DNA from: Treponemataceae bacterium
GTDB lineage: Bacteria > Spirochaetota > Spirochaetia > Treponematales > Rectinemataceae
Direction: 5' to 3'
NCBI GenBank assembly: GCA_963678065.2
Contig: CAXXVZ010000003.1
Coordinates: 96,001-160,000, forward strand
Length of the DNA: 64,000 bases
Part shown: positions 2,302-28,745 of the stretch, piece by piece
Layout of the letters: every line of letters starts with the position of its first letter
Position numbering within the stretch: position 1 is the first letter of the stretch
The notes under the pieces: model-generated
What the model was told of the DNA's origin: nothing
What the model saw: only the letters and a program-made list of their open reading frames with translations
The model's database searches: none
Translations under genes and position numbers: made by a program

Positions 2302-2319
2302 GCCTAATTATTGTTAGCA
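2302..2319 (+). other. attI core (crossover G|TT at 2313/2314)
   Basis: GCCTAATTATT-GTTAGCA; GTTAGCA is the reverse complement of the first attC R'' box (TGCTAAC, 3414). Confidence 0.8.
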
Positions 2320-2342
2320 GGACCCTTCGGGCGGAGGAAAAA

Positions 2343-3392
2343 GTGAACACAATAAATGAAATAATGCAATCAATTATTGATGAAGTGAAAACTAAAACTA
2401 ATGATCCTAAAAAACAGAGGGAAATCGTTGATAAGGTTTTTGAAAAATCTCTGCCTAAAATTACAAGTGATTTATATACAACCTTGGAAGAAACTTCTCA
2501 TATAATGTTAACCGAAAATAGATATGAAAATGATGAGTTTCGTGCACGATTAAACATGCAATGGTTTCAAGCGTTTGATTTACTAGAAAAGCTTTCAGTT
2601 GTTTCGTATGAAATTGGTGATGAAATAAATAAAAATGCAAAAGTATTTGTCTCAAAAGACAATGCATATCTCTTTGAAGTTTTACTTCACTTACATGCAA
2701 GGTCTATTCAAATAACAGAAGAAGTATTAGTCTTAATGAAGAATGGTTATGCTGATGGCGCTATAGCTAGATGGCGCACTCTTTATGAAATATCAGTTAT
2801 CGCTTTATTTATTTCAAAATATGGAAATGATATTGCTAAGCGTTATAAAGAGTATTCTAATGTTGAGACATACAAAGAAATGAAAACATTCATCGAAAAA
2901 AATCCAGAAAACGGATTTAAAAAAGTACCCAAAAAAGAAGTTCAAAGGCAAGAGAAGAATATTGATGATTTAAAAACTAAATATGGAAATGATTTTATTA
3001 ATAATTATGGATGGACAAATTCTGTATTAGTAAAAGGTAATAGAACATTTGAAGGTATTGAAATAGAGGTAGAGAAAGATCATTTACGACCATTTTATAA
3101 ATGGGCATGCAATGCTGTTCATGCAGGACCAAAAGCTGCTTATTATAAAATGGGTGTTTTAGGAAAAGAGAAGGTATTATTAACTGGACCAACCAATTAT
3201 GGTTTTGCTGATCCAGGACAAAATACCGGATTGTCATTGGTTCAAGTAACTTCTATTTTAGTCTTGAATTTCATGGATTATGATAATCTAGTATCGATGG
3301 AAATATTAACAAAATACTATAAACAATTACAGAAAAAATTTGTAGAAATACAGCGTAAAATTGAAAAAGAGAATAAAGAGAAAAATTCTTAA
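2343..3392 (+). CDS. Cassette 1: DUF5677-like protein
   Basis: GTG start after GGAGG, downstream of attI; motifs RWRTLYE and YKWACNAVH; AT-rich; attC follows. Confidence 0.65.
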   Translation: MNTINEIMQSIIDEVKTKTNDPKKQREIVDKVFEKSLPKITSDLYTTLEETSHIMLTENRYENDEFRARLNMQWFQAFDLLEKLSVVSYEIGDEINKNAKVFVSKDNAYLFEVLLHLHARSIQITEEVLVLMKNGYADGAIARWRTLYEISVIALFISKYGNDIAKRYKEYSNVETYKEMKTFIEKNPENGFKKVPKKEVQRQEKNIDDLKTKYGNDFINNYGWTNSVLVKGNRTFEGIEIEVEKDHLRPFYKWACNAVHAGPKAAYYKMGVLGKEKVLLTGPTNYGFADPGQNTGLSLVQVTSILVLNFMDYDNLVSMEILTKYYKQLQKKFVEIQRKIEKENKEKNS

Positions 3393-3413
3393 TCAAAGAG
3401 ATAAGAAAAATTC

Positions 3414-3536
3414 TGCTAACAACCGCTTCAACCTTATAAATCCTTTGGCATGGTTTGTGCAGAACAACAATGCACAAACCACGCCAAGCCTTCGCTTCGC
3501 TCAGGCGCGGATTTAAAGGTTAAGCCAATGTTAGGC
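3414..3536 (+). other. attC1
   Basis: TGCTAAC-N5-CTTCAACC...GGTTAAG-N5-GTTAGGC with a palindromic interior. Confidence 0.93.
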
Positions 3537-3601
3537 GGACGCGCTTCGCGCGCAAAGATAAATAAAGACTGAATAGGCATTATGCTTTGTCTGGAGTAGA
3601 G

Positions 3602-4153
3602 ATGATACCTTTTATACGAAAAAATCCTTTGTTTTCTCTTTGTGGATTAAATTGCAGTTTGTGCCCAAGATTTAATACTGATGGAAGTTCGAAATGTCCA
3701 GGCTGTGGCGGAGAAAACTTTTCAACTCAGCATCCAACTTGTGCAGTAGAAACATGCAATAGAAAACATGATAATGTGGAATATTGTTATCAATGCAGTG
3801 AATACCCATGTAAAAAATATCAAGAAGAAAGCAAATGTGATTCATTTATATCATATAGAAGTGTAAAACAGAATTTTATAGAAGCAAAAAATGATATTAA
3901 AAAATATGAAACCGATTTAGGTAAAAGACAAAAGTATTTAAAGATATTATTAGAAAAGTATAATGATGGAAAATCGAAAGGATTATACTGCCTTGTTGCT
4001 AATGATATGCCATTAAATGAATTAGAAATATTAATTAGTAAAATTGATAAAATACCAATTGATTTGGATATAAAAGAAAAAGCAAAAGAGGTTAAAAAGG
4101 AAATTTTAGCATTAGAAGTAAAATTTGGCTTTGAATTTAAATTAAGAAAATAG
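3602..4153 (+). CDS. Cassette 2: DUF3795-like cysteine-rich protein
   Basis: CGLNCSLC, CPGC and CYQCSEYPC motifs. Confidence 0.75.
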   Translation: MIPFIRKNPLFSLCGLNCSLCPRFNTDGSSKCPGCGGENFSTQHPTCAVETCNRKHDNVEYCYQCSEYPCKKYQEESKCDSFISYRSVKQNFIEAKNDIKKYETDLGKRQKYLKILLEKYNDGKSKGLYCLVANDMPLNELEILISKIDKIPIDLDIKEKAKEVKKEILALEVKFGFEFKLRK

Positions 4154-4154
4154 C

Positions 4155-4277
4155 GCCTAACACCTGCTTCAACCTTATAAATCCTTTGTCATGGTTTGTG
4201 CAGAACAACAATGCACAAACCACGCCAAGCCATCGCTTCGCTCAGGCGCGGATTTAAAGGTTAAGCCAACGTTAGCC
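4155..4277 (+). other. attC2
   Basis: GCCTAAC...GTTAGCC; near-identical to attC1. Confidence 0.93.
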
Positions 4278-4332
4278 GGACGCCTTCGGCGCTCATATAA
4301 TAATCAAGAACTAAAAATTGCTTAAAGGAAGC

Positions 4333-5250
4333 ATGAAATTGGATAAAAAAAGAAAACAACATTATGTTTGGAAATACTATTTAAAGCAATGGACACAGAA
4401 TAAGAAAGTATTTTTGTTGTATAACAACGAAATACTTAATACTAACCTCGATAATGTAGCAAATAGTAGGGATTTTTATAGGTTAAAAGAACTTAATAGT
4501 AATGATTTAATATTTTTACAATATGCAATTAATAAGATTAATGATCCATTACTCAAAAAATTAGATATTGATTGGATAAATACTTTCTCAGAAGTATTTA
4601 AAATTCGAGAAAAGATTATTAAAAGCGGTAATAGTAATAAGGAGCTTGATAACATAATAGATATAACAATAAATAATATGGAAGAAGAATTACATTCAAA
4701 GATAGAGAATATTGGATCAAAGTATCTTAAAATGATACTTGAACAAGATTTATCATTTTTTGAAACAGATGAAGGATTCATTGAGTTTACCCTATATTTA
4801 TGTATGCAATATTTCAGAACAGAGAACATGAAAAATCAGGCATTACAAAGTGAAATTGCGGATTCTAGCTTTATCATAAATATGGATAATGTTTGGAGTA
4901 TTTTTAAAATTTTATTCGCTACAAATATGGCATATACATTATATGCTTCTAAAGAAGACTGGAAAATGCAGCTTCTTGAAAATGGAACAGAAATACCATT
5001 TATTACTGGAGATCAACCAGTAATAAATGAATATTCTATACCAAATACTATATCAAAAGAATTAAGTCTATATTATCCAGTATCACCGATACTAGCGATT
5101 AGAATAAGCAAAGAACTCGACAGATCTAAAAGTAGCCAAATATGTACTAAAAAAGATGTAATAATTCAGAATAAGAAGATTAAAAATAATTCGTATCAAC
5201 AAATCTATGGAAATACTAAAAGTTCACTTGAAACTTTTATTACGAAATAA
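4333..5250 (+). CDS. Cassette 3: DUF4238-domain protein
   Basis: N-terminal KQHYVWKYYLKQW and FITGDQPV motifs. Confidence 0.8.
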   Translation: MKLDKKRKQHYVWKYYLKQWTQNKKVFLLYNNEILNTNLDNVANSRDFYRLKELNSNDLIFLQYAINKINDPLLKKLDIDWINTFSEVFKIREKIIKSGNSNKELDNIIDITINNMEEELHSKIENIGSKYLKMILEQDLSFFETDEGFIEFTLYLCMQYFRTENMKNQALQSEIADSSFIINMDNVWSIFKILFATNMAYTLYASKEDWKMQLLENGTEIPFITGDQPVINEYSIPNTISKELSLYYPVSPILAIRISKELDRSKSSQICTKKDVIIQNKKIKNNSYQQIYGNTKSSLETFITK

Positions 5251-5255
5251 AATTC

Positions 5256-5379
5256 GGCTAACAAACGCTTCAACCATATAAATCCTTTGTCATGGTTTTT
5301 GCGAGAAGATGATGCAAAAACCATGCCAAGCCTTCGCAGTAGCTCAGGCGCGGATTTAAAGGTTAAGCGAATGTTAGGT
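5256..5379 (+). other. attC3
   Basis: GGCTAAC...GTTAGGT; R'' complements the cassette start GTTAGCC. Confidence 0.93.
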
Positions 5380-5464
5380 GGACGCTTCGCGCAGAAAAAT
5401 AGAAATTACGTCGGAAAGGCATCAAATTTATTACAAGCATCCTAAAAATGGTTGAAACAAAAAT

Positions 5465-5812
5465 ATGAAGATAGTAATAAAAGGCAATAAAGGAAAAAAA
5501 GTGAATAAAATAACTAAAAATGCTATAGAGATAAAGAAATTATGTGAGAAAGGAAATAAAGAAGATATTTCAAAAGTAATGTCATATCTTAATGAAGATG
5601 TAGATTTACCTACAACAAAGATTGTTGACTATTATCTAGGAACAGTAAAAAATTGCGAAGGAATTGATTGTATAGAGTATTTTTTGTTTAATGGAACTCA
5701 AATTCAAAGGAATTATTGTACATTATTCTTTGCAAGAAGAAATGACTGGATCCTTGTGAACAAAGCATATAATCTAGGGTTAATAGATTACATTCAAGCT
5801 TATTCAAGATGA
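5465..5812 (+). CDS. Cassette 4: hypothetical protein
   Basis: 115-aa ORF filling the interval between attC3 and attC4. Confidence 0.7.
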   Translation: MKIVIKGNKGKKVNKITKNAIEIKKLCEKGNKEDISKVMSYLNEDVDLPTTKIVDYYLGTVKNCEGIDCIEYFLFNGTQIQRNYCTLFFARRNDWILVNKAYNLGLIDYIQAYSR

Positions 5813-5829
5813 ATATACAATAAAAAGAC

Positions 5830-5967
5830 ACCTAACGCACGTTTCAACCTGACTCGGCTACTGTCACGCTTCTTGCTAAGACCCTGTGGAATCCAGAAGA
5901 GCTTTATACCAATAGGCTGCAAGAATCGCGCCAGTTTGACGCCTCGCAGGTTAAACGAATGTTAGAA
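5830..5967 (+). other. attC4
   Basis: ACCTAAC...GTTAGAA; second attC subfamily (CCTGACTCGGC...GCCTCGCAGGTT). Confidence 0.9.
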
Positions 5968-5988
5968 GGACGCTCCGCGCGGGGGAAT

Positions 5989-6888
5989 TTATAACTTTTC
6001 TAGAGTTATCAAATGAACGTGTTCGCAAGCTTCGTACTGCGTCTTGTTTTCAAGGAATATTTTTTTCTGAATTTCATCAGGTGATAAATGCGCTTTGATT
6101 GAAAAGTTGTATTTATTGGTAATCGATACTAAGTCATTATATGATAAGCACGACTTAAACTGTTCTCCAGTAAATTTTGCTTGATTAATCCATTTTCTGA
6201 AGCTATCGGAAGATCTTGACTCATCAAAGGTTGTATTATCAAAATAATCAAATACAATACGACTTCCAGATGAGCATATTTGCGAAATAGATTCAAATAA
6301 CTCATTTAGTGAGCTAAGGTCTAAATACATTATCAAACCTAATGCACTTATAAATACGCATTTATTGCGTTCAAAAGATGATTCTATCATAACTTGTTTT
6401 AAAGTATTTGTAGTTAAATCAGCACAAATGAACTCTGTATTTTTTGGTAATCCTTTGCTAATTCGATAAAGCTGTTCTTTCTTGAAAAATTGTGTATCCC
6501 CTTGGTCAATTTCAAATATTTTTATTTGTGGAAATTTGTCACATCTGAGAGAATAAGTATCTAATCCTGCACCTAATACAATATATTGAGAATTACCTTC
6601 TTTTAAGAAAGATTCAAGTTCGTTCTCGCAATAATAAGTTCTACTTAGCACTTGTGCTGTAGTCGGTATATTTCTAATTATCTTGGAAATAATCGCATCA
6701 GTTTCTTTATCAGTTATTGGTTTTGGTAAATTTGGTAGTGTATTTAAAAATCCCATACGAATTAATTGTCGTCTGTCTTCAGGAATAATCTGTAATGCCA
6801 ATGAATCATTGCAGATTTTATAGGTATCATAATACGAATGAAACCCACGAAGAAAAGCACAAAAAATACTTGTTACACTAATTGCCAT
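5989..6888 (-). CDS. Cassette 5 (inverted ORF): class I SAM-dependent methyltransferase, LCM-like
   Basis: QYIVLGAGLDT, FEIDQ, CADL and GLIMYL motifs; antisense to the array. Confidence 0.85.
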   Translation of the reverse strand: MAISVTSIFCAFLRGFHSYYDTYKICNDSLALQIIPEDRRQLIRMGFLNTLPNLPKPITDKETDAIISKIIRNIPTTAQVLSRTYYCENELESFLKEGNSQYIVLGAGLDTYSLRCDKFPQIKIFEIDQGDTQFFKKEQLYRISKGLPKNTEFICADLTTNTLKQVMIESSFERNKCVFISALGLIMYLDLSSLNELFESISQICSSGSRIVFDYFDNTTFDESRSSDSFRKWINQAKFTGEQFKSCLSYNDLVSITNKYNFSIKAHLSPDEIQKKIFLENKTQYEACEHVHLITLEKL

Positions 6889-6974
6889 AGATAACTCCTA
6901 AATCTGAAAAAGTGTAACTATCCATTATACCATATATATGACATTTTGTCACCTAGTTGCTTAAAAGAAATGTC

Positions 6975-7099
6975 TTCTAACACATGCTTCAACCCTATAA
7001 CGCCTTTTGTCATGGTTTTTGCGAGAAGATCACGCAAAAACCACGCCAATCCTTCGCTACGCTCAGGAACAGGCGTTAAGGGTTAAGCCAATGTTATAT
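6975..7099 (+). other. attC5
   Basis: TTCTAAC...GTTATAT. Confidence 0.92.
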
Positions 7100-7636
7100 G
7101 GACCCTTCGGGCAGAATTATTTAAGACATAAATAAATGGAGGCAAATATGAAATGCTTTGTAATAATGCCATTTGCAAAAGAATTTGATCTAGTAAAAGA
7201 AGCAATAAAGACAGGCGTAACGAATACAAACAATATTTTCTATAGAGCTGATGAGGACTATAGGTCGGGAAAAGTCACAGAACAAATATGTAAAATGATT
7301 GATGAGTGCGATATTTGTATATGTGATATTACTAAAAATAATCCTAATGTAATATGGGAACTGGGGTATGCATACTCAAAAGAAAAAAGAATAATATTAC
7401 TTGTTCAAGATACAAAAGAAATATTTTTCAATATTAAAATTGAAAGAACAATAATCTATAATCTAGATAACATTAAAAATACTCTAATTCAGCATTTGGA
7501 AATATTTCTCACTAATATAGCTATAGATATTAGCAATCAACCAATAGAAGAATATTTTGAAAAAAATAAATACAATGGTTATAGTAAAATTATTGGATCA
7601 CCACATATAGATAATACTCCATTTAGTTATTTTAGT

Positions 7637-9031: not shown

Positions 9032-9565
9032 TAGTATTAAAAAATTTGTTAAAAGGCATATATTTATAGCTGCTCAAGATCATTATTTCTTAACTAAAAA
9101 TGAAAATAGGGAGAAGTATAAGAATAGTATTTTAGATTTTTTAATTGGAAATCCTGAAAGAAAAGTTGATATTATGATTACAGATGAAAGAATTAAGAAT
9201 AGATATTCTCATAAAACATGGCAATATGTTACCGCAGATAGATTTATTACTGACTTAAATGATGCAATTCAATTTTATCAAGAATTGATTATTTATTATG
9301 ATAATATTAAAGGTAAAAAAGGAACTTTATCAATACATAAAGTAACATTTATTCCTATTACTATTAGCTTTATTGACCCGGAAGAAGAAAATGGATTTCT
9401 TATACTTTCACCAAATGCTTATGAAGATGAAGGTATGAAGAGACCATTCTATGCGTTTTCAAAAAAAAGAAATGAAGAGATGTTTATTGAATATTGGTCT
9501 CCATACAAGAAAAAATATGAAGAAATAAAAGATAGTAATATTTTAGAAAAATAGAAAAAATACTC

Positions 9566-9671
9566 ATATAACAACCGCTTCGACCTGACTCGGCTCTGTC
9601 ACGATTCTTGCATGAACAACAATGCAAGAATCGTGACAGTTAACGCCTCGCAGGTCAAGCGAATGTTAGAT
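9566..9671 (+). other. attC6
   Basis: ATATAAC...GTTAGAT; R'' complements GTTATAT at 7093. Confidence 0.92.
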
Positions 9672-9732
9672 TGACCCTTCGGGCCGAAGAATAAGAATTA
9701 ATAATAGTTGCTTATATAAGAGGATAAAACCT

Positions 9733-10371: not shown

Positions 10372-10478
10372 CAACTGCTTCAACCTGACTCGGCTATGTC
10401 ACGATTCTTGCTAGTCGTCGCTACGCTCCTCGGCAAGAATCGCGCCAAAACGCCTCGCAGGTTAAGCAAATGTTATGT
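10366..10478 (+). other. attC7
   Basis: ATCTAAC...GTTATGT. Confidence 0.92.
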
Positions 10479-10506
10479 GGACGCTTCGCGCAGAGGATAG
10501 AAAAAT

Positions 10507-11077: not shown

Positions 11078-11085
11078 GAGGAGAC

Positions 11086-11200
11086 ACATAACAACCGTTT
11101 CAACCTTATAAATCCTTTGGCATGGTTTGTGCAGAACAACAATGCACAAACCACGCCAAGCCCTTCGGGCCCGGATTTAAAGGTTAAACGAATGTTGGGC
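11086..11200 (+). other. attC8
   Basis: ACATAAC...GTTGGGC. Confidence 0.92.
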
Positions 11201-11268
11201 GGACGCCTTCGGCGCTAATAAAGACTTGTCAACTATTTCTATTAGTAGATGACAATGAGGTTGTATAA

Positions 11269-14200
11269 ATGAATTGGAAAATTTTTTGTGTAAAATACGA
11301 CAATCGAGAGGCATGGGCATTTGAACAAATGTCTTATTTGCTTTTCTGTGCAGAGTTTAATAATCGAATTGGATTATTTCGCTATAAAAACCAAACAGGA
11401 ATTGAGACAGAGCCAATTGAAAAAGACGAAAAATATTATGGTTTTCAATCCAAATATTACACGACCTCAATCGCTGACAATAAAGGCGACATTATTGATT
11501 CAATCCAAAAAGCCAAATCAAAAAACATACAATTAGATGAATTATTTCTCTACATCAACCAAGAACTTTCCGAAAGCACCACTAAAAGTAAGAAGAAACC
11601 TCAATACCAATTAGACATTGAGAAATCCGTTAAGGCAGTAGGCGTAAATATTCAATGGCGAGTTCCAAGTCATTTTGAATTACAATTGTCTTTGCCGGAA
11701 AATAAATATATAAATGACATTTTTTTCAGCCTTGACCCAAACGAAGGAGATTTGCTTGATGAAATTTCTAAACACAATGAAAATATTCTAAAAGCAATTC
11801 AAACTGAAATATCTTTTGGCGACAAGCAAATTAAAATTGACCGAAATTCTGTCGTTGAAGCAATAGCAAATGCTACTCAAAAGAAAAAAAATATAATTAT
11901 TTCAGGCGAAGGTGGTTGCGGTAAGACCGCAATTTTCAAGGAGTTTTATAATTTCTATTTTAAGAAGATACCAATTTGTGTTTTTAAAGCAAACGAGCTT
12001 AATGTAAATCACATTAATGATATATTTCACTTTGACCACAAATTCACATTTGTGCAGTTTCTCAATGCTTTTAAAGATGAACCTATTAAAATATTTGTAA
12101 TTGATTCCGCAGAAAAACTTGCAGAGATTTCTAACAGCGACATTCTTACTACACTAATACAACAGTTAAAAGAAAACGCTTGGAATATCATCTTTACAAC
12201 ACGCTACGCTTATCTTAACGATTTAACTTTTCATATTAAAGAGAATTATCAGTTACCATTTGACGTTAATGATGTTTCTTTGATTGGTGCTGATGAATTA
12301 AAATCAATAGCAGAAGAATTCAAATTCTCACTTCCTGACAATCAAAAATTCTTAGAACGACTTAGAAATTTGTTTTATCTGAGAGAGTATGTTCAACAGT
12401 ATTTAAACATTGATAAACAAGGAAACTATAAAGGATTTATTGACTTGCTTTGGAAAAAGCGAATACAAAATACCGTTCAAAAAGATAATTTACATCTTGA
12501 AAGAGAAAAGTGCATTATCAATATTGCTAAACAAAGATGCGAAACAGGTCGGTTTTATATCAATGCAGATGATTTGTCACAATCAGCGTTGTTCCAATTA
12601 AAGCAAGACGAAATACTTGGTTATGATGATACACATAACGGATATTTTATTACTCACGACATTTATGAAGAATGGACGTTGGACAAAATAGTTTCCCGTA
12701 GTTTTTCAAATTATTCAAACATAAAAGAGTTTTTTGACGAATTAGGGAATTCATTGCCCATTCGTAGAGCATTTAGATTGTGGTTATCTGACCATTTATC
12801 TGAAAATTCTAAAGAAATAGAAAGTTTTATTCAGGGAGCATTTACAAATGTTGAGGTTACTCAATTTTGGAATGATGAAATTTTAGTTTCAGTTTTATTG
12901 TCAGATTATTCAGCGACATTTTTTAAGTTTTTCGAGAACGAAATTATTGCAAATGATTTTAAAATACTAAAGCGGATTTTGTTTCTATTAAGAATTGCAT
13001 GCACCGATATTTCAGCAATTCAAAATATTGAAATTATAAAACCTAAAGGCAAAGGTTGGGAAGAAGTAATTGACCTTATTCACATACATAAATCTGACTT
13101 TTTCGATAGCAATTTAAAACTTGTTTTACCAGTGTTAAACGATTGGTGCGAATTCAACAAAAAAGGAGAAACAACAAGGTATTCGGGTTTATTAGCTTTA
13201 AGTTTAATAAAAAAGACAGAAACCGAAAAAAACTTCTACATGAAAGAAGTTGCAGAAGAAAATATTTTGAAAGTAGTTTTCAATGCAGCCAATGAAATAC
13301 AAACAGAATTAAAAGAAATATTTGATAAAGTAGTTGCTAATAAATGGAATGAACACCAAGACCCATACGAAAAGCTTTGTTCGAAAATTTTAACAAAACC
13401 TTACCTAGCTTTAGAGGTAATAAAAATTCTTCCATTATCTGTAATTCAATTATGTAACTTGTATTGGCAAAAACGAGAAAGAGAAAATGACGGATTCGGA
13501 TATGAAAGAGATAGTATGGAGAATAAATATGGTTTAGTTGATGAATTTAGACATGATTATTTTCCTGCAAGTGCTTTTCAAACGCCGATTTATTGGTTAC
13601 TACAATATCGTTTTAAAGAAACTCTTGATTTCATAATTGACTTTACAAATCGAGCTGTTAAAACTTATAGTCAGTCTGATTATGGTAAAGAAGATGTTGA
13701 AGAAATTAATCTTAATGTCAATGATAAAGAAGTAACACAATTTTTAAGTTGGTCAATTTGGGCTATGTATCGTGGGGTTGGTAGTCCAGTTGTACCCTAT
13801 TTATTGCAATCTATCCACATGGCTTTAGAAAAAATTCTTTTAGAATTTTCTCAGATATTGAAGTCTGAAATAGTTCAATCTATACTTCTTAAAATTCTTA
13901 TAGAATCAAAATCAACTTCACTAACCTCAGTTGTTTGCAGTGTTGTATTAGCAAATCAAGATAAATTCTATGATATTTCTTTAGTATTATTCAAAACAAT
14001 TGAATTGTTTCATTGGGACTCAGTTAGAAGCTTAAATGAATTTCAAGTGTTTAATCCTATCCTGCCCCAAAAGGAATATTGCACCAAAGAGAGAGCAGAT
14101 GCCAAGGAAGCAAAACATCGAAATTCAAATTTAGAATCATTATTCTTAAATTATCAGCTTTTCGGTGTAAAAGGGTTTAGCGAAGAACAAAATATTGAAT

Positions 14201-15936: not shown

Positions 15937-15958
15937 GTTGGCTACTAAAATGTATAGC

Positions 15959-16071
15959 GCCCAACAACTGCTTCAACCTGACTCGGCTATGTCACGATTC
16001 TTGCTTGTCGTCGCTTCGCTCCTCGGCAAGAATCGTGACATAACGCCTCGCAGGTTAAGCCAATGTTGGGT
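15959..16071 (+). other. attC9
   Basis: GCCCAAC...GTTGGGT; R'' complements GTTGGGC at 11194. Confidence 0.92.
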
Positions 16072-16143
16072 TGACGCTCCCGCGCAGGAAGAAAACTAAC
16101 AAAGCCATATCGAGTATTCATAAAGATTAGTAGGAGAGTAAAA

Positions 16144-18063: not shown

Positions 18064-18261
18064 AATTGTACGGAAGTAGAAGGAAGATGAAGGTTGGGCT
18101 TAACCTGGGACACAGAGCCCGATTGCAGATTAACCAGCCTTCTTCGGACAATCCCTTGGGATCGTTTTTAAATCGACGAAAACCCGGATAGAAGTATGAA
18201 GGCCTACTACTTGTTTCCAAGATAGAGGCTTCGATTCTGCCTGATACTTCTGGTGTACAAT
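18064..18261 (+). ncRNA. Predicted bridge/seek RNA
   Basis: Closing stem ATTGTAC/GTACAAT; two parallel internal loops carrying guides that match the attC target and the element junction. Confidence 0.75.
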
Positions 18262-18271
18262 ACGGGGGAGG

Positions 18272-19429
18272 ATGGAGATGACCGAAAAGGAAAGGATCAC
18301 CAACGTCAGTGAATGTGAAGAAATCGAGGCGAGTTATTATGGCATCGATCTTCATAAGGATCAAATAACCTGGCATTGCATCGATCGGACATCGAAGGGG
18401 ATTTTGGTTCGTAGAACAGGGAAGATATTGACGGATCGTATCCATGAGGATTTCATTCCGATGCTGCGCAAGGAAAAATGCTATGTAATCGTGGAAGCCT
18501 CCGGGTCAACTTTTTTCTTCCACAGCCTGATACAAAGCCACTGCACGAAGGCGATCATCGTCAATCCATCTGCTTTCCGGGAACTGTATATGACCGGGAA
18601 AAAGACAGACCGGATCGACGCGAAGAAATTGGCTGACCGGCTGATGTACCACATAGAGATGGAGGACGGCGACGATGGATTTCCCGAAGTATTTGTTCCG
18701 GACGAGGAAGCCCTGAAGATCCGCAAACTGGTAACAACCTATGAATTATTGGTTAAGCAGATTACCCAGGCAAAGAACCAAGTGAAGGCCATCTTCCGTT
18801 CAAAAATAATTAATGTCGATGTAGACGTGTTGGATAATGGACTGGAAATAGCCCTACAAAATGTGAGCCTGGACAACGCGGACAAAATTATCGTTCGGTC
18901 GCTCAAAGGATTGTACGATACTTTGTGTCGCGAGAAACAGACCATCAAGGAAGCGATACTCTCCATAGGAGTACGCCGATTTCGAGACGAAATAGCGCTT
19001 CTCACCAGTATATCAGGAGTAAGCATCATCGGGTCGATTGTCTTCATGTCAGATATAGTAACTGTAGGACGCTTTGATTCCGCCAAGAAGTTGACATCCT
19101 ATTTGGCCAGCGTCGGAAAGGTAGACGCATCGGGAAATACTACGAAGAACGGCGGACTCAACAAACGTGGAAGGCGAACCTCGTACCGTTTCATCCTGCA
19201 AGGCCTTGAACATATAGTCAATGGTAACGAAGGGTTCCAGCGATTCAGGGCAAGGCATGCCTCGAAGCGATCAAACAAAATAAGGGCGGCAATTGTACGC
19301 AAGACCTTTGTCACGATGTATTACATGTTAAAGAATCATGACATGTACCGTTTTCTGAATAAATCCATCTATACTCGGAAAATAAGGGAACTGAACAAGA
19401 TCAAAAAAATAATTGAAAAAGCGGCTTGA
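18272..19429 (+). CDS. IS110-family DEDD recombinase
   Basis: GIDLHK, VEASG and KTDRIDA motifs; C-terminal Tnp domain (SISGVS...DASG). Confidence 0.95.
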   Translation: MEMTEKERITNVSECEEIEASYYGIDLHKDQITWHCIDRTSKGILVRRTGKILTDRIHEDFIPMLRKEKCYVIVEASGSTFFFHSLIQSHCTKAIIVNPSAFRELYMTGKKTDRIDAKKLADRLMYHIEMEDGDDGFPEVFVPDEEALKIRKLVTTYELLVKQITQAKNQVKAIFRSKIINVDVDVLDNGLEIALQNVSLDNADKIIVRSLKGLYDTLCREKQTIKEAILSIGVRRFRDEIALLTSISGVSIIGSIVFMSDIVTVGRFDSAKKLTSYLASVGKVDASGNTTKNGGLNKRGRRTSYRFILQGLEHIVNGNEGFQRFRARHASKRSNKIRAAIVRKTFVTMYYMLKNHDMYRFLNKSIYTRKIRELNKIKKIIEKAA

Positions 19430-19538
19430 CGGATTTTCTCATAGAAGGTTAAGCAAATGTTGGGTTGACGCTTCGCGCGATGAATATAATTGAGATACGA
19501 TCCCAATTTATGTATTGGTGAAATAGAAAGGACAAAAA

Positions 19539-20555: not shown

Positions 20556-20673
20556 CACATGCTTCAACCTTATAAATCCTTTGGCATGGTTTGTGCAGGA
20601 ACAACAATGCACAAACCACGCCAAGCCTTCGCTTCGCTCAGGCGCGGATTTAAAGGTTAAGCGTATGTTAGGT
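20550..20673 (+). other. attC11
   Basis: ACCTAAC...GTTAGGT. Confidence 0.92.
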
Positions 20674-20696
20674 TGACCCTTCGGGCAGTAGTTTTG

Positions 20697-21263: not shown

Positions 21264-21703
21264 TGGGAACTGACAGTCTGATGGACGATCTACATTCGGC
21301 AATTGTGGTTGCTCAAACGGGTGACCATTCTGAAGCACGGCGACTGTTCACCGAAATTGTACCGCGTTTAGGGGACGACGCAGGAAAGAACTGCATTCTG
21401 GCTCACTATATGGCCGACGTTCAGGATAGCGTTGCAGATGAACTACTTTGGGACCTGAGGTCACTACATCACCTCAAACAGGTGACCGAGGACCAAATTG
21501 AGGTGCTTGGCTCATCCCTGAGGACAAAAGGGTTCTATGCATCAATCTACTTGAACATCGCTAACTGCTACATGAAACTCGGAGAACGGGACCAACTAAT
21601 CAAGTATCTTGACCTTGCGGATGCCAGTTGTGATTTGCTGGACCAGGACGAATACGGAAACTTCATTCGAAGTAGAGTTGCCCTATTGCGTAGTAGAACA
21701 TGA
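21263..21703 (+). CDS. Cassette 12 gene B: TPR-like helical protein
   Basis: TGATG overlap with gene A; CILAHYMADVQD and SIYLNIANCY motifs. Confidence 0.65.
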   Translation: MGTDSLMDDLHSAIVVAQTGDHSEARRLFTEIVPRLGDDAGKNCILAHYMADVQDSVADELLWDLRSLHHLKQVTEDQIEVLGSSLRTKGFYASIYLNIANCYMKLGERDQLIKYLDLADASCDLLDQDEYGNFIRSRVALLRSRT

Positions 21704-21817
21704 ACCTAACATTGTTTTCAACCTGACGGCGCCCTTTGGCATGTAATTTGATATAGGATATCAAATTGCATGCCAATCGCTTCGCGAACGGGCTTGCAGG
21801 TTAAAACAGCGTTAGAA
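21704..21817 (+). other. attC12
   Basis: ACCTAAC...GTTAGAA; more divergent interior. Confidence 0.88.
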
Positions 21818-22113
21818 TGACTAAAGCATACCGATAGAGAGAAAGGATTTGAGGTGAAGAAGAGCTGCGCAAAGAGACCGTGGAAAAGCCGCCTGAAAGA
21901 ACTCTCTATGCGTTCGCAGAAAAAGGCGGCGGGAGAACGGTCGAAGAGCGCAGCAAGACTTAGAAAAATGGGAATAAGAGATCACACCGAGAGGTTTGCT
22001 GGTACGAAGAGCGTCGCGAGGAACCGTCCCAGGAGCGCGCAGTCGCGCGCACGAGAATGGGACGGCGAAAAAAGCGCCGCAAGATTGTGGCGACAGATGA
22101 CTGTTGTTCTAAC
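21812..22113 (+). other. Cassette 13: no convincing ORF
   Basis: Bounded by GTTAGAA and the complementary TTCTAAC; the only + ORF reads through the attC. Confidence 0.65.
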
Positions 22114-22120
22114 AACTGCT

Positions 22121-24039
22121 GTGTGCCACGAAATCTGATGGGCACTTTTGAATAGTGATTCAGGAGGTGTCATAAGAGCTGTACGACAGATGAGGAAACA
22201 CCGGGGTAGCTGGTGTGAGCCTCGGGATCTGCTTGCAGGAGCCGGTCTCAAACCGCCAGAAGCTGCTTGGATAAAGAGTCCCGGTGGTGAACGTATCTGG
22301 TTAAAAGGCCCCCGCATGACGGGGTCAGGTGTGGTATCAGGAGGCGAACGAAAGTGAACCGACCGATGAGGTGTCGAAAGTGAGTTTGATGAGGTCAAAA
22401 GCAGTGATTAGCTAGTGCGCTGTGAAAAGAGTCCATCGGGAAACCTGTGTACTGGGTGGACGGCCTCCGGCATTAAGGCGGCGTGAATTGATACTGGGCT
22501 GTTGTATGGAACGTGGGAACCTGTCGTTCCGATGTGAAGGGAGAACCTCAAGCGGCGAACCCGACGAGAGGGAGAGTACCGATGCGGAGCACAGGGACGT
22601 CGCCAGGATGGCGCCGGCTCGTAGTAGTGATGAAGTTCCTGTAACGGGAATGGAGCGAAGGGGCCGACATACTCGTGTCTTTTCTGAACGCCAACTGGCG
22701 ACAGGATGAACGGATGGGAAAGGCAAAACCGTTTGACATACCGAAGCGACTCGTATGGAAGGCATACCAGCGTGTACGGGCGAACGATGGGGCGGCGGGG
22801 ATCGATGGACAGACGCTTGAGAAGTTTGACGGGAAGCTCTCGAAGAATCTCTACAAGCTCTGGAACCGGATGTCCTCGGGCAGCTATCATCCAGACCCAG
22901 TGAAGAGGGTGGAGATTCCGAAGAAGAGCGGAGGAACGCGAGTGTTGGGAATACCGACAGTCGCGGATCGAATCGCGCAAATGACCGCGCGGTTGTGTTT
23001 CGAGCCCATGGTGGAGCCAGGGTTCCATGACGATTCCTACGGATATCGACCGGGGAAATCAGCCCACCAGGCCGTGGCGAAAGCCCGGGAACGGTGCTGG
23101 AAATACGACTGGGTCATCGATCTGGACATCAAGGGATTCTTTGATACCATCGAGTGGGAGCTCATGATGAAGGCGGTGGCGTTTCACAAGCCGCCCGAGT
23201 GGGTTCGGCTGTATATCGAGCGATGGCTCAGAGCCCCGGCAAAGGATGACGCGGGAACGATCATTGAGAGGGATACGGGAACGCCGCAGGGTGGGGTGAT
23301 AAGCCCGCTGCTGGCGAATCTGTTTCTGCAGTACGCCTTCGACATGTGGATGGAACGGAGACACGGGGGAAACCCTTTCGAGCGCTATGCTGACGACATC
23401 GTCAACCACTGCCGGACACAGGCGGAGGCAGAAAATCTCCTCGAAGAGATCAAGCTGCGATTGGCCGAGTGCAAGCTGACGGTACATCCGGAGAAGACGA
23501 AGATCGTGTATTGCAAGGATCGGAACCGTAGGGGAGACTATGAAAGGACCGAGTTTGACTTCCTCGGCTTCACCTTCAGGCCGCGCACGGCGAGGGGGAA
23601 GAACGGGAAGCTCTTCGTGGCCTTTACCCCGGCGATCAGCAGAAAATCCGAGCAGGCGATCAAGGACACGATCCGGACGTGGCGAATCCAGAGGGCGGCG
23701 ACAGCGACCCTCGAAAGTTTGTCGAAACTGTACAACTCGAAGCTTGCGGGATGGTTTGCCTACTACGGGAGATTTCGGCCATCGGCAATGTACGGAATCT
23801 TGTGCATGTTCCAGAAAATCCTCGTAAAATGGGCAAAGTGCACATACAAGCGCCTGAAGAGGAGCTGGCTGAAGGCCGCCGAACTCATGAAGAATGCAGC
23901 TGACAACAAGAAGCACTTGTTCATTCACTGGGAGCATGGATGATATGCCAATGGTAGAGTGTGAAGAGCCGTATGATGGGAGACTATCACGTACGGTTCC
24001 GTGAGAGGCTGGGGGTGAAAATCCCCCGGCCTACTCGAC
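22121..24039 (+). mobile_element. Full-length group II intron, RmInt1-like (class D)
   Basis: 5' GTGTG; domain V GAGCCGTATG...GTACGGTTC from 23966; domain VI with bulged A, ending CTCGAC. Confidence 0.93.
22714..23943 (+). CDS. ltrA: Group II intron reverse transcriptase/maturase, no endonuclease domain
   Basis: NLYKLWNRMSSGSY, GTPQGG, YADD, KTKIVYCKD and C-terminal LFIHW motifs. Confidence 0.95.
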   Translation: MGKAKPFDIPKRLVWKAYQRVRANDGAAGIDGQTLEKFDGKLSKNLYKLWNRMSSGSYHPDPVKRVEIPKKSGGTRVLGIPTVADRIAQMTARLCFEPMVEPGFHDDSYGYRPGKSAHQAVAKARERCWKYDWVIDLDIKGFFDTIEWELMMKAVAFHKPPEWVRLYIERWLRAPAKDDAGTIIERDTGTPQGGVISPLLANLFLQYAFDMWMERRHGGNPFERYADDIVNHCRTQAEAENLLEEIKLRLAECKLTVHPEKTKIVYCKDRNRRGDYERTEFDFLGFTFRPRTARGKNGKLFVAFTPAISRKSEQAIKDTIRTWRIQRAATATLESLSKLYNSKLAGWFAYYGRFRPSAMYGILCMFQKILVKWAKCTYKRLKRSWLKAAELMKNAADNKKHLFIHWEHG

Positions 24040-24180
24040 TCAACCTTACAAATCCTTTGGCATGGTTCTTGCGAAAGATTACGCAAGAACCATGCCAAGC
24101 CCTACGGGCACGGATTTAAAGGTTAAGCGAATGTTAGCCGGACGCCGAATCTATTCACACCAATAAGGAGATTTCCCGAA

Positions 24181-24927: not shown

Positions 24928-25064
24928 TGCGTTAGCGCATCCGGCGGATCGTCAACGGCTGTGCCGCGCAACAGCTGGTGGCTCGTCACAATGTGATTGC
25001 GCCTGAATTCATTTCTTATGGTCTGGTTATCCATGCAATCAACAGAAAGGCCTGTCTCAGGCAG

Positions 25065-25078
25065 GCCTAACAATTCAT
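25065..25078 (+). other. attC14 left part
   Basis: GCCTAACAATTCAT directly followed by an intron 5' end. Confidence 0.8.
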
Positions 25079-25306
25079 GTGTGCCACGAGATCTGATGGG
25101 CACCTTTGAATGGAGATTCAGGAGGTGTCATAGGAGCTATGCGACAGATGAGGAACCATTTTCGCAAGGAAACGGGAGCCTCTGGATCTGCTTGTAGGGG
25201 CCGGTCTCAAACCGCCAGAAGCTGCTTGGATAAAGAGTCGACGAGAGGGAGAGTACCGATGCGGAGCACAGGGGCGTCGCCAGGATGGCGCCGGCTCGTA
25301 GTAGTG
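25079..25306 (+). mobile_element. Degenerate group II intron 5' fragment
   Basis: Aligns with 22121-22280, then jumps to ~22563-22629: a ~280-nt deletion that removes the EBS region. Confidence 0.88.
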
Positions 25307-25559
25307 GCGCTGCCGGAAAACAGGGTAGTAGCTGTTTTGGGTTTTGTGGATTCTGGCGGAACAAGGCGAAAGCCTGGATTTTCCGCGCAGATTTCCGCAT
25401 TCCCCGAAATGACAGTTCCTAACAGTCGGGGGGTGATGCCACCAGTTGTCATGATGGGGGAGTATATCGCGGGAATCGGGGCGAGCAACGGGAGGAGGGA
25501 TTCGTCGTCGGCTTGCCTTGACAAGGGAAAGCATGGCGACCCATGCTTCATGCTCCACT

Positions 25560-26495
25560 ATGAAAATCGATAGGCTCCTGTCCATCGTCGTCTACCTTCT
25601 CAACCGTGATCTGGTGAGCGCGAGCGCACTGGCGAAACGTTTCGGCGTTTCGGTTCGGACGATTCAGAGGGACATGGAAGCAATCGATCTGGCAGGCATT
25701 CCGGTGATCAGCGTCCAGGGGCCGTCGGGCGGCTACGGCATCATGGACGGCTATAAGATGGATCGGCGCTTGGTGACCGTGGACGACCTCTTCTTCATCA
25801 TCACCGCGCTACGCGGCATCGAAGATTCGCTGGACGACCGCCGGATAGGCGACGCCTTGGAGAAGATGCGTGGGCTATTGCCGTCGGCGAACGATAATGG
25901 ATTCAAGGACAGGGAAGAGAAACTCCATATCGATTTCAGCATGCTCGGAGGCGGGCCGGACCAGCGGCGGGTATTCAAGACCGTTCAAGAGGCCGTGAAC
26001 TCGGGTCGGCTTCTTAAGATGGACTACACCAATAACCGGTTGGAACGCGAGTCGCGGATCGTGGAACCGATGACGATCGTGTTCCAGTGGCGCTCGTGGT
26101 ACCTGTTCGCCTATTGCCGCCTCCGAGAAGGGTACCGGCTCTTCCGGATTTCGCGGATTAGGGAGCCGAAGATCCTGGACGAACGCTTCCGGCGGCGGAA
26201 TTACGGTTACGAGGAGTTTTCCCGGGAGAACGATCCGGAGCGGACGGGGAACGTCGTGGAACTGACCCTGAAATTCTCAGGCCGGATGGTCCCAGTGGTG
26301 GAAGAGTTCTACAACAAGGAAGACTTGGAACGAACGGCGGACGGCGGCCTTATCGCCAAAACGCGTATGCCCGAGGACGGTTGGATGTACGGCTATATCT
26401 TGAGCTACGGAGCCTTCGTGGAAGTGCTCGACCCCCCCCATATCCGGGACATCATAAAGTCCGCCGCCCGGCACATTCTGCGAATATACGAATAA
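25560..26495 (+). CDS. YafY/PafBC-like HTH-WYL transcriptional regulator
   Basis: LAKRFGVSVRTIQRDM HTH; RIVEP, WYLFAYC and FRISRI motifs. Confidence 0.92.
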   Translation: MKIDRLLSIVVYLLNRDLVSASALAKRFGVSVRTIQRDMEAIDLAGIPVISVQGPSGGYGIMDGYKMDRRLVTVDDLFFIITALRGIEDSLDDRRIGDALEKMRGLLPSANDNGFKDREEKLHIDFSMLGGGPDQRRVFKTVQEAVNSGRLLKMDYTNNRLERESRIVEPMTIVFQWRSWYLFAYCRLREGYRLFRISRIREPKILDERFRRRNYGYEEFSRENDPERTGNVVELTLKFSGRMVPVVEEFYNKEDLERTADGGLIAKTRMPEDGWMYGYILSYGAFVEVLDPPHIRDIIKSAARHILRIYE

Positions 26496-26508
26496 TTGTT
26501 TTTATCCC

Positions 26509-26524
26509 CGACATACAGGTGTCG
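26509..26524. promoter_or_regulatory. Candidate WYL operator
   Basis: Perfect palindrome CGACA-N6-TGTCG between the WYL gene and the GyrI-like gene. Confidence 0.6.
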
Positions 26525-26571
26525 TATACCCTATGCGATGATCGGTCTATCAATCGATTACGGAGGTATTT

Positions 26572-27024
26572 ATGCAGATCATTGAAAGGAAGGAAACACC
26601 CGTCCTATCCGTCCGCTACAGGACGCCGGCGGCGGAACTGCCGAACAGCATGGGCCGGATTTACGGGGAGATCGCGATGTACATGGGTAAGAGCGGCATT
26701 CCCTTCGCCGGACCGCCTTTCGCAATGTACTACAACATGGACATGAACGACCTGGACGTGGAGATCGGGTTTCCGTTGGCCAAGGCCGCGGTCGGCGAAG
26801 GACGGATCGCGGCAGGCAAGCTGCCGGGAGGCTCCTTCGCGACGGCCAAGCATACAGGTCCATACACGACCATTGAGGCGACGTACAACGCGCTGACAGC
26901 CTTCGTGAAGGACAAAGACGTCCAGATGGAAACCTTCATGTTCGAGGAATACCTCAATTCGCCCGAGGATACTCCGCCTGAAAAGCTTGAGACGGTGATC
27001 TACTTCCCGTTGAAAAGGGCCTGA
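26572..27024 (+). CDS. GyrI-like small-molecule-binding protein
   Basis: HTGPYTTI and EEYLNSP...ETVIYFPL motifs; GGAGG RBS. Confidence 0.88.
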   Translation: MQIIERKETPVLSVRYRTPAAELPNSMGRIYGEIAMYMGKSGIPFAGPPFAMYYNMDMNDLDVEIGFPLAKAAVGEGRIAAGKLPGGSFATAKHTGPYTTIEATYNALTAFVKDKDVQMETFMFEEYLNSPEDTPPEKLETVIYFPLKRA

Positions 27025-27303
27025 AAACGGGGCCGACCGCTTCCAGCACCCGGCAAAGGCCGGATGCAGCGGCGGTCGGCCAATCCGGGGAGCGCCCATG
27101 TACGCGTAGGACAACCGAATACCCCTTCGAATTCCTCAAGAACCCGGAAGAACCGATATTTTGGGGGAGCATAACGTTGCAGCGCTTTTCAAATAGGAAC
27201 TGCGAAATCATACTGAACAAGCTTTAAACTTCCGACGCACCTGTTTCCAGCAGCAACATCAAGGACGCACCCAATATTTTACGAAAGACCATCACCGAGG
27301 GGT

Positions 27304-28460
27304 GAGATATGATCAATTGTTGTGGACAGGGGAATAGGAAACGGACGTTCATTTCCGGTAGGGTTTTGTCGCCAAACGAAACCACCGAAAGGGAGAACGT
27401 CCGTGCGACAGACTACAATCAAGCCTCAAAATGATGCAATGCCCGAAACCATGCTGGTGCTGGAAGCCCTCATACGAGAGGGAGCCCGAAAACTGCTCCA
27501 TGCAGCATTGGAAGATGAAATCGAAGCGCATCTTGCCCGGTATCGTGATCTGAAAGACACAAACGAGAGACAGTGTGTGGTGAGAAACGGATACCAGCCG
27601 GAACGGACAGTCCTCACGGGAGCAGGACCCATTCCGGTCAAGCGTCCACGGGTAGACGACAGGATATTGGCAAAAACAGGCGACGAGCGTTTCACAAGTA
27701 CGATATTGCCGAAGTTTATGAGACGGGCGGCGAGCATCGATTCCCTCGTACCTGCGCTGTACCTGAAAGGGATTTCCACCGATGATTTTCCGACAGCCTT
27801 GGAGGCAATCCTGGGTCCACAGGCAAAGGGGCTTTCAGCAACCACGGTAGTACGGCTGAAAGAAGTGTGGACCGATGAATACGAGGAATGGAATAAGCGG
27901 GATGTGAGCGGGAAGCGATATGTGTCCATCTGGGCCGATGGGGTGTACTGCTCTGCACGGCTCGAAGATGAACGATCCTGCTTTCTGGTTATCATGGGCG
28001 CTGATTCATTCGGTAAAAAGGAATTGCTTGCTGTTTCCGACGGTTTCAGGGAAAGCGCGCAGTCCTGGAGAGAGCTTCTTCTCGGCCTTCGCTCTAGGGG
28101 ACTTGTCCACGTACCTTCCCTTGCTGTCTGTGACGGTGCCATGGGATTCCAGGCGGCGGCTGCGGAAGTATGGCCGGAAACAAGAATCCAACGCTGCTGG
28201 TTCCATAAGTCCGGCAATGTCGTGGATACGCTGCCCAGTTCTATCCAGGCAAAGGCCAAGGACATGCTCCACGACCAGTATCTCGCGCCGACGAAAGAGG
28301 ACGCGCTCAAGGCTTTCAGCCTGTTCATTGAAACATTCGGAGCCAAATATCCGAAAGCGGTGGAATGCTTGACAAAGGACAAGGACGACCTGTTCGCCTT
28401 CTACGATTTTCCTGCTGCCCATTGGGTACATATTCGGACGACGAATCCTATTGAATCGAC
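27304..28460 (+). pseudogene. Truncated IS256-family element (transposase from GTG 27403)
   Basis: RNGY, LYLKGIST, IWADG and QRCWFH motifs; homology ends after RTTNPIEST; no right end found. Confidence 0.88.
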
Positions 28461-28612
28461 ATTACCAATGTCATCAAGGCTCAGTCGACTCTTTTCGCCC
28501 ATTGGGAGTGGGGGGGTACGGTACAGGCAGAATATGAAGAGCCGTATGAATCAAGAGATTCACGTACGGTTCCGTGAGGGGCTGAGGGTGAGATTTCCTC
28601 GGCCCACTCGAC
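28461..28612 (+). mobile_element. Group II intron 3' fragment (RT tail + domains V-VI)
   Basis: Frame from 28461 reads ITNVIKAQSTLFAHWEWG; domain V from 28539; ends CCCACTCGAC. Confidence 0.88.
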
Positions 28613-28708
28613 CTTATTAATCCTTTGCCATGGTTCTTGCGAGAAGATCACGCAAGAACCATGCCAAGCCCTTCGGACACGGATTTAAAGGTTAAGCCAA
28701 TGTTAGAA
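28613..28708 (+). other. attC14 right part
   Basis: CTTATTAATCC...GGTTAAGCCAATGTTAGAA; same subfamily as attC13. Confidence 0.85.
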
Positions 28709-28745
28709 GGACACCGCTCACGCGGCGCAAAAGGAGAGCAAAAAC

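Follow-up and report, generated by a model that had tools for sequence, protein, structure and literature searches.

An integron of a Treponemataceae bacterium (NCBI GenBank assembly GCA_963678065.2, contig CAXXVZ010000003.1, positions 96,001 to 160,000; this stretch of 64,000 nucleotides is the window hereafter) has 15 cassette starts that all read GTT-N5-GAC, most of them continuing into a tiny hairpin. This motif is real and lineage-wide in spirochaetes, and it is predicted to extend the R arm of the attC recombination site. No description of an R-arm extrahelical base (EHB) or of a downstream hairpin was found in the literature searched, which lacked most subscription journals and some supplements. 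The shape of the R-arm extension is well supported by covariation. In our best reading, the R arm of attC measures about 12 nt here and contains a third EHB, likely touched by the integrase monomer bound to the R box. We lean toward the view that the motif is the outer R arm, folded on the single-stranded bottom strand, with base 10 contacted by the R-bound integrase and recombination aided by this contact. That the fold forms on the bottom strand, with coaxial stacking, is in our judgment very probable.

When the sequence is read directly, GTT-N5-GAC stands at each of the 15 coordinates given in an earlier, sequence-only reading of the window (Table 1). The bare pattern matches 28 times across the whole window, for 24 matches expected, which is no enrichment and makes a whole-window count uninformative. 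Within the array, N5-GAC follows just 4 of 380 other GTTs (about 1%) and, because this background is so low, its presence at 15 of 15 cassette starts is not due to chance. What the sequence-only reading missed is the register of the motif, since it described N5 as variable and saw no consistent pairing partner. N5 does differ between cassettes, but it is not free. The AAC (R'') and GTT (R') cores are complementary within the cassette over 8 bp in 11 of 15 cassettes (the other four are without an exact partner), and in each of these 11 the 5 nt that precede the cassette's own AAC are exactly complementary to N5. Counting from the G of GTT as position 1, this pairing ends precisely at the G of GAC in 11 of 11. 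This G pairs with the C right after the hairpin, while the C of GAC opens the stem. The hairpin is a perfect G[A]-stem-loop-stem-C at 12 sites, has one mismatch at 28702 (by inspection), and is missing at 21811 and 24133, which agrees with the ten hairpins and three variants counted earlier.

For comparison, arrays were taken next to integrases that were found independently of the motif, to which we added metagenome loci picked by a spirochaete-type L'+spacer+GTT pattern, which are grouped as spirochaete-type. The attC detector required AAC, a 5-nt spacer, and an L box with one extra base, allowed at most one mismatch, and applied a folding threshold; it replaced a detector that overlooked spirochaete sites by demanding an L box within the minimum-energy fold. 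Cassettes were kept only if positions +4 to +7 matched their own R'' and, because of this entry condition, 7-bp pairing is true by construction in the data set. Removal of shared cargo reduced 601 cassettes to 453, and 11 were added later. The final sets hold 324 spirochaete-type cassettes (45 genomes or loci) and 134 proteobacterial cassettes (27 genomes). Planctomycetota are represented by a few named loci only. A pattern search at phylum level limited the core to 50 nt, so that it missed the window's own long sites, and its single matches are mostly chance. A control set of 71 terminator loops from the genome was noisy and was not used.

Most of the spirochaete-type cassettes (242 of 324) carry what we term type A, an extension that folds on itself; the check for the motif in related arrays, which had been named beforehand, thus came out in its favor. 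GAC occupies positions +9 to +11 in 76 of 104 host-family cassettes and in 110 of 158 from family f3, but in 0 of 134 from Proteobacteria, and +10 is a purine in 315 of the 324. The maximal stem begins exactly at +11 in 217 of 313 spirochaete-type cassettes versus 2 of 134 proteobacterial ones. Position 9 and the base after the stem form G:C in 220 type A cassettes and a compensatory C:G in 11, with other combinations in the remaining 11, and +10 is an A without partner in 235 of 242. When each of the 113 distinct hairpin strings is counted once, these figures become 98 G:C, 8 C:G, and A10 in 107, and three or four kinds of base pair occur at each of the stem positions 11 to 14. Pairing of position 9 with the R'' flank is confined to 3 of 241 type A cassettes. 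When +8 is mismatched to the cassette's own R'' flank, the hairpin is able to take it up in 23 of 37 cases versus 40 of 205 otherwise. This covariation points to a structure in which positions 1 to 8, as seen in the sequence, pair with the cassette's own R'', while G9 joins the base after the stem, A10 stays unpaired, and the stem runs from position 11.

A minority (27 of 324) attains the same shape by other means. In these type B cassettes there is no hairpin; covariation shows that nine bp form, that purine 10 is skipped, and that two more bp form with the cassette's own R'' flank. This arrangement is found in 27 of the 38 hairpin-less cassettes with nine bp, with a mean of 9.2 and a maximum of 19 in 20,000 descriptive permutations, and +10 in these 38 is A (29) or G (9). 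Type B is spread over eight dinucleotide types and six genomes, with 20 cases in G029. That genome (f1) has three integrases, 213 attC-end pattern matches, and a recurring 274-bp type B cassette without an open reading frame (ORF). Outside spirochaetes, the type B pattern occurs in 2 of 23 proteobacterial cassettes, in 0 of 11 Nitrospirota rows (a thin sample), and in 2 of 5 plausible cyanobacterial cassettes (also a thin sample; one by script, one by eye). Proteobacterial cassette ends pair without a gap, often over 11 to 12 bp, and numbers drop after 12 (21 at 11, 37 at 12, 4 beyond; 18, 15, and 3 without the largest array). In arrays L285-L324 and plasmid loci L453-L460, cassette-end complementarity of 11 to 12 bp goes well past the 7-bp R box. 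The arms of tyrosine recombinases measure 11 to 13 bp. The sequence-only reading placed the motif outside canonical attC. Judged by published definitions this is correct, but in its behavior the element belongs to the folded site.

We then turned to cassettes outside the data set, in an out-of-sample test in which two attC regions of the window were compared with plasmids and 8 of 26 matching records were read. All five plasmid cassettes picked by their spirochaete-type core alone carry type A (aac(6')-F72, aphA16, aacA1:gcuG, and a hypothetical gene) or type B (aacA16), as opposed to 0 of 12 neighboring cassettes. These features lie at the cassettes' own 5' ends, 600 to 1050 nt upstream of the matched core. 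Two of the five, aacA16 and aacA1:gcuG, have been ascribed to Spirochaetes from the core alone (PMC8352920). For aac(6')-F72, aphA16, and the hypothetical cassette (L453:1907, L454:1676, and L460:1712), the combination of a spirochaete-type core and a type A leader suggests a spirochaete origin, beyond the published list.

As for the strand on which the fold forms, the loops are strongly asymmetric. Read on the bottom strand they begin with G and end with A in 183 of 242 type A cassettes, while none of 229 does so on the top strand, and in 182 of 242 a C:G pair closes a G..A loop on the folding strand, as in d(GNA) mini-hairpins. The same tendency is seen in the loops within attC cores (93 bottom-strand versus 6 top-strand G..A among 398). 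Triloops are GNA in 123 of 145 cases, ranked GAA (89), GGA (17), GCA (14), and GTA (3). Their order of abundance is that of measured melting temperatures (76, 73, 71, and 70 °C, respectively), and only GNA forms the DNA mini-hairpin (PMC13037366). A bottom-strand d(GNA)-type mini-hairpin may stack on the 8-bp stem to give a helix of about 12 nt or more, which would be the length that many proteobacterial cassettes obtain by plain complementarity of 9 to 12 bp. Type A, being self-contained, would form with any upstream cassette, so that hybrid sites in the array would keep a full R arm, while type B would form only with the cassette's own R''.

These findings bear on two other roles. An RNA element on the cassette transcript, i.e., a 5' stabilizer, a processing site, or a terminator, was proposed in part by the sequence-only reading, and it now appears highly improbable. 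The motif does belong to the 5' leader, where a purine-rich ribosome-binding stretch is often close by, and 52 of 229 hairpins contain CTTCGG. However, the register of a cUUCGg tetraloop on a stem of at least 3 bp works in 2 of 229, a T-run as in intrinsic terminators follows 8 of 242 hairpins, G..A loops are confined to the bottom strand, and the mini-hairpin, when made of RNA, has a melting temperature of 39 °C (PMC13037366). The motif is also kept, as noticed earlier, ahead of an inverted gene (5989-6888, after the site at 5961), an Rfam scan of the window matched group II introns only and nothing at the motif, and type B and the L-arm mirror described below would be left unexplained. It is likewise distinctly unlikely that the motif is, instead of an integrase target, a nucleation or priming signal that excludes single-stranded DNA-binding protein (SSB) from the excised single-stranded circle or intermediate and is read by a primase or host factor. 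SSB has little affinity for GNA mini-hairpins, which are found at the G4 and ssiA priming sites (PMC13037366), and a mini-hairpin is said to help attC folding against SSB (bioRxiv 2024.04.09.588808), yet neither the fixed register to GTT, nor the bulge at position 10, nor the hairpin-less type B is explained in this way. Such a role may add to integrase recognition rather than replace it. REP (repetitive extragenic palindromic)/HUH guide hairpins carry a conserved tetranucleotide at their foot and go together with a cognate HUH nuclease; no gene for such a nuclease was found among the 55 window ORFs scanned.

What points to the integrase as the reader of the bulge is the opposite arm of attC. 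Spirochaete attC have an L box with an extrahelical G and a second EHB 6 bp further on, as described for EHBs near L'' (PMC5027507). When the first EHB is removed from the count, the bulge of the L arm falls at position 10, as on the R arm, in 241 of 287 distinct attC from spirochaetes; position 10 is also the commonest in proteobacterial attC (43 of 133). Since L'' and R' enter the central spacer in the same 5' to 3' direction, R' position 10 would, by bottom-strand geometry, be the two-fold equivalent of the L-arm T. EHBs are thus not confined to the R''-L'' arm here, the unpaired base 10 of types A and B being on the R' arm. In the VchIntIA integrase, the residues that bind the L-arm T in cis are P232, H240, and H241 of the nonattacking subunit (PMC3053210). 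We propose that the R-bound monomer takes up the bottom-strand T at position 10 in its His/His pocket or close to it, where this T might raise binding or recombination. Conservation of the attI left arm extends to position 13, and this arm is a mirror of the R arm (19 same-orientation sites of 30 rows), which makes it plausible that integrase contacts reach position 13. The "extra integrase site" of the sequence-only reading was a right lead. The same-orientation attI sites share G-16 and A-15 (18 of 19 each) and A-7 (19 of 19), a conservation that spans spirochaetes, NC10, Nitrospira, and cyanobacteria (L003, L014, L020, L045-L047, L055, L057, L061, L063, L065, L073, L077, L097, and others; 2296-2312 in the window).

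Two other ways in which an integrase might be involved fare less well. GAC could be a base-specific contact in duplex DNA, used where a cassette serves as the right half of attI, with the hairpin incidental. The attI left arm, read outward (TT-N-G-R-C-N-G-W-T-C-C), does resemble the cassette arm (TT-A-G-R-Y-K-G-A-Y-S-C). But the 11 cases in which G9 is replaced by C with a matching change of its partner, the freedom of position 9 in type B, the covarying stems, and the equal use of A and T at position 10 of the attI arm (8 and 8 of 19) all make this very unlikely. In the second, the mirror T would act as a brake, holding the R-bound monomer in its nonattacking state, thereby lowering excision and stabilizing large arrays. 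Cis binding of the L-arm T disorganizes the catalytic site (PMC2727003), so the mirror T might inhibit rather than help, and type A forms in the array context. Against such a brake, type B cannot form in the array, type A and B cassettes have entered class 1 integrons, and a type A cassette is strongly excised by up to five integrases (PMC3053210). In Table 1 of that article, aac(6')-Ia-orfG is the cassette excised best of those tested after attI1, attI2, and attI3; this excision argues against a brake and speaks in favor of the R-arm reading, though it is qualitative and uncontrolled. We find a brake barely credible.

The possibility that demands most discussion is that the motif is a footprint of cassette genesis, as the sequence-only reading also suggested: the process that makes cassettes would copy or append a fixed end structure, for example when a gene is dropped into a blank dumbbell cassette at the junction of bp 8 and 9, and the shape would have no later role. 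Type A is indeed the exact remnant expected of an insertion between hairpin-C and N5'-AAC in GTT-N5-G[A]-hairpin-C-N5'-AAC. The feature tracks the cassette pool of the host lineage rather than an integrase clade, the type of leader goes with the N5 of the cassette itself (0 of 2,000 permutations), and gene-less palindromic cassettes exist in a Nitrospira array. However, there is no blank cassette among nine pattern matches in five genomes with large arrays, and no target duplication (3.93 versus 3.92 when shuffled). No direct or inverted repeats were found between the flanks after the hairpin and before R''. Cassette ends also stay paired across changes under homologous cargo: among 34 pairs of cassettes with homologous cargo, N5 differs in 25, and 44 of 51 changed N5 positions remain paired, while hairpins differ in 12 of 19 A-A pairs and eight pairs have type A opposite type B. 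The 113 distinct hairpins with compensatory pairs, the loops ranked by stability, and these switches between A and B point to selection on shape, which is a simpler reading than repeated genesis with templated ends; moreover, two unrelated sequence solutions yield one shape. We therefore hold a pure genesis footprint to be unlikely. Two mini-cassettes, L064:2763-2850 (Nitrospira) and L314 (a proteobacterium), are gene-less palindromes in which GTT pairs with a nearby AAC through a small hairpin.

While the leader stays with its cargo, the attC core often does not, since cores differ in 33 of 116 same-cargo pairs. Core swaps are seen in G029, G042, G057, G247, and other arrays (L024-L033, L265-L282, L351-L361). 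In the clearest swaps both spacer halves move with the core, which implies exchange at AAC as well as at GTT. A second exchange in the L box, with the left spacer staying with the cargo, was rejected as the route because the left spacer differed in 18 of the 33 pairs with different cores. Leader type has a weak link with the attC core in G029 (9 of 2,000 permutations), none in family f3, and none with the preceding attC; because cores reassort, the leader-core link neither supports nor rejects genesis. A phage origin was also considered and dropped, with 0 of 61 viral-contig matches in attC context. In the window's own genome, one element end adjoins GTT-N5-GAC-hairpin three times (C3:851777 and 864322 on the minus strand, C3:2361461 on the plus strand). 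Both of its minus-strand copies come after a tyrosine recombinase of 296 aa and an ORF of 403 aa, which we take to resemble an IS91-type transposase; this element may target or capture cassette starts. Three integron loci of another genome (L021-L023, G024) have an attC followed by an identical sequence beginning GTTGCACT, which is probably a mobile element inserted at GTT.

Several observations weigh against a bottom-strand R arm read by the integrase. When distinct loops only are counted, G..A is found in 61 of 113. Nearest-neighbor energies favor the top strand in 162 cases and the bottom strand in 67, the G9 pair is missing from predicted folds, and the mini-hairpin forms in four of five folded sites; standard energy models do not account for GNA mini-hairpins, according to the abstract of PMC13037366. 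Fifty-five of the 324 cassettes (8 with a relaxed test), including 2 of the 15 window sites, are neither type A nor type B. A single genome, G029, contributes 94 of the 324 cassettes and 20 of the 27 of type B, and permutation figures are descriptive because kin are not independent. On the protein side, the window integrase IntI keeps both pocket His residues of VchIntIA, but the counterpart of P232 is an Arg, and the motif is not tied to one integrase clade, since G047 and G365, with other IntI types, carry A or B cassettes. Finally, the aac(6')-Ia-orfG clone of PMC3053210 is assumed to have the leader seen in L457, and its constructs differ beyond the leader.

IntI also has an N-terminal extension of about 70 aa (956-1165) that is HARP-like. 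HARP is a fork-binding domain. Pfam PF07443 scores 17 bits against the window extension (cut-off 25), 12 of 23 members match PF07443 at E values up to 0.05 (best 1e-5), a profile of the extension matches PDB 4O66 with an E value of 0.0012, and 4O66 is the top Foldseek match of a confident model (E value 0.045, TM 0.56). The extension is common to many spirochaete and a few Nitrospira and NC10 integrases; no paper on it was found in the literature searched, which was without most subscription journals. Some other spirochaete and Nitrospirota integrases (L337, L338, L349, L378-L384) have a different N-terminal extension of 100 to 190 aa with no HARP-like profile match. The HARP-like domain was rejected as a required reader of the motif, since the G047 and G365 integrases are without a profile match, Nitrospira L064 has the domain but an unbulged 11-bp cassette, and IntI1 handles type A and B cassettes. 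A bolder picture, which we regard as speculative and improbable, is that spirochaete attC are near two-fold-symmetric dumbbells, with a flipped-out T after nine pairs on each arm and the extrahelical G alone breaking the symmetry. The R-arm T would let R-bound monomers switch between attacking and nonattacking states, permitting exchange at AAC and GTT, and in many of these integrases the added HARP-like domain would read the double-flap junction to which the self-folding hairpin gives rise. If true, this would explain core reassortment under unchanged cargo.

The integron itself is of the Treponema "reverse" type, with IntI reading toward its own cassettes, a layout known for Treponema (PMC3607928). 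The IntI alignment spans the I2 region of VchIntIA (2A3V), so that the integron-specific region is present, and its nearest titled relatives include integrases of Spirochaetota and Treponema. The array extends from attI at 2313 to about 29600 and is broken up by insertion sequence (IS) elements and group II introns. An attC L' and spacer precede 14 of the motif sites, the one at 2313 being attI, and 11 intact attC cores of 98 to 130 nt are of the kind shown in Table 1. An IS110-family element (18272-19447) stops just 5' of an attC L', the left part of this attC being gone. One cassette encodes a 1555-aa protein (11269-15936) with a weak, below cut-off match to an nSTAND3 NTPase, possibly an anti-phage gene. 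Three group II introns (22121-24039, 25079-28612, and 29593 onward) are all inserted into the top strand of attC L'' at an identical point, behind its second base, and are oriented like the cassettes, unlike IIC-attC introns; one top-strand case of group II intron insertion is cited in PMC7923331. The first is intact with a reverse transcriptase, while the second holds WYL, GyrI-like, and IS256-type genes instead.

Table 1. Integrase gene, recombination sites, and cassette starts of the window
Feature	Position	Strand	Description	Partner R''
IntI integron integrase, 394 aa	956..2140	+	Pfam Phage_integrase and SAM_4; TIGR02249 above cut-off; 2A3V, E value 6e-80	
attI	2296..2320	+	Left arm GGATC-AGCCT-AA, spacer, GTT of cassette 1; left arm mirrors cassette arm to position 13	
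Example attC core, AAC to GTT, 115 nt	3418..3532	-	L'' CTT[C]AACC; second EHB after 9 paired positions; L' GGTTAAG	
Type A	2313..2332	-	GTT AGCAG G[A]CCC-TTC-GGG-C	3413-3420
Type A	3530..3553	-	GTT AGGCG G[A]CGCGC-TTC-GCGCG-C	4154-4161
Type A	4271..4292	-	GTT AGCCG G[A]CGCC-TTC-GGCG-C	5255-5262
Type A	5373..5392	-	GTT AGGTG G[A]CGC-TTC-GCG-C	5829-5836
Type A	5961..5980	-	GGA bottom loop; cassette gene inverted	6974-6981
Type A	7093..7112	-	IS inside cassette	9565-9572
Type A	9665..9684	-	Partner R'' includes the gene's stop codon	10365-10372
Type A	10472..10491	-		11085-11092
Type A	11194..11215	-		15958-15965
Type A	16065..16085	-	GGGA bottom loop; IS elements follow	Exact 8-nt partner not found
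Type A	19459..19478	-	Preceding attC cut by IS110-family element	Exact 8-nt partner not found
Type A	20667..20686	-		21703-21710
GAC without hairpin	21811..21821	-		Probably 22106-22113 (7 bp and a G-T pair)
GAC without hairpin	24133..24143	-		Not identified
Type A, one stem mismatch	28702..28728	-	GTGA bottom loop; by eye, not called by the strict test	29578-29585

An important implication concerns the way attC sites are defined. They are recognized by shape, and EHBs, the UCS (unpaired central spacer), and the VTS (variable terminal structure) are treated as the full list of determinants, with an R arm that ends at 7 bp. If our reading is true, an R-arm EHB would be a fourth determinant, the functional boundary of attC would move into the start of the next cassette, and a conserved R-arm base would be built in two independent ways across the cassettes of a phylum. 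In an array, hybrid sites combine the R' of one cassette with the R'' of another, and type A would also account for their retention of a full R arm. Cassette genesis would be constrained as well, since ends would have to match over about 12 nt with one base skipped. Furthermore, the leader marks the origin of a cassette without reference to the attC core, in a way that agrees with PMC8352920 on aacA16 and aacA1:gcuG and adds aphA16 and aac(6')-F72.

Compared with known systems, the spirochaete sites share with canonical attC (VCR, attC aadA; R box, UCS, L box, two to three EHBs, VTS) the AAC/GTT core, the L box with an extrahelical G, the second extrahelical T after a 6-bp stem, and purine-rich bottom-strand loops. 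They differ from canonical sites, in which published EHBs lie solely on the R''-L'' arm near L'' (PMC2727003, PMC5027507), in an additional unpaired base that the R' arm has outside the 7-bp R box, past which the helix would come from a self-folding hairpin or a 2-bp extension. Another close system is the T. denticola "reverse" integron (PMC3607928, PMC4909258), with the same L boxes and with intI directed toward the array. The attC of order-level relatives of our bacterium match the published T. denticola set, and genomes whose attC match the published denti7 sequence carry the motif. As published, T. denticola sites stop at or just past the 7-nt R', work on oral cassettes scores 7-bp cores only, and the accessible texts of PMC3607928 and PMC4909258 contain no GAC, hairpin, or bulge in their attC descriptions. 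The likeness to the interior of short proteobacterial attC that the sequence-only reading pointed out holds for aadA2 attC, whose distal L arm and terminal loop have the same G[A]-stem-TNC-stem-C layout. In aadA2 this layout sits inside the attC hairpin, while the spirochaete copy lies outside R', in mirror position, and has neither an L box nor an extrahelical G. Finally, with d(GNA) and d(GNNA) mini-hairpins (GCGAAGC; the G4 and ssiA origins; N4 promoters) the motif shares GC/CC stems that close G..A loops and loop frequencies in the order of the melting temperatures. Unlike those systems, the spirochaete mini-hairpin is held in a fixed register beside a recombination crossover, with a bulge below its stem.

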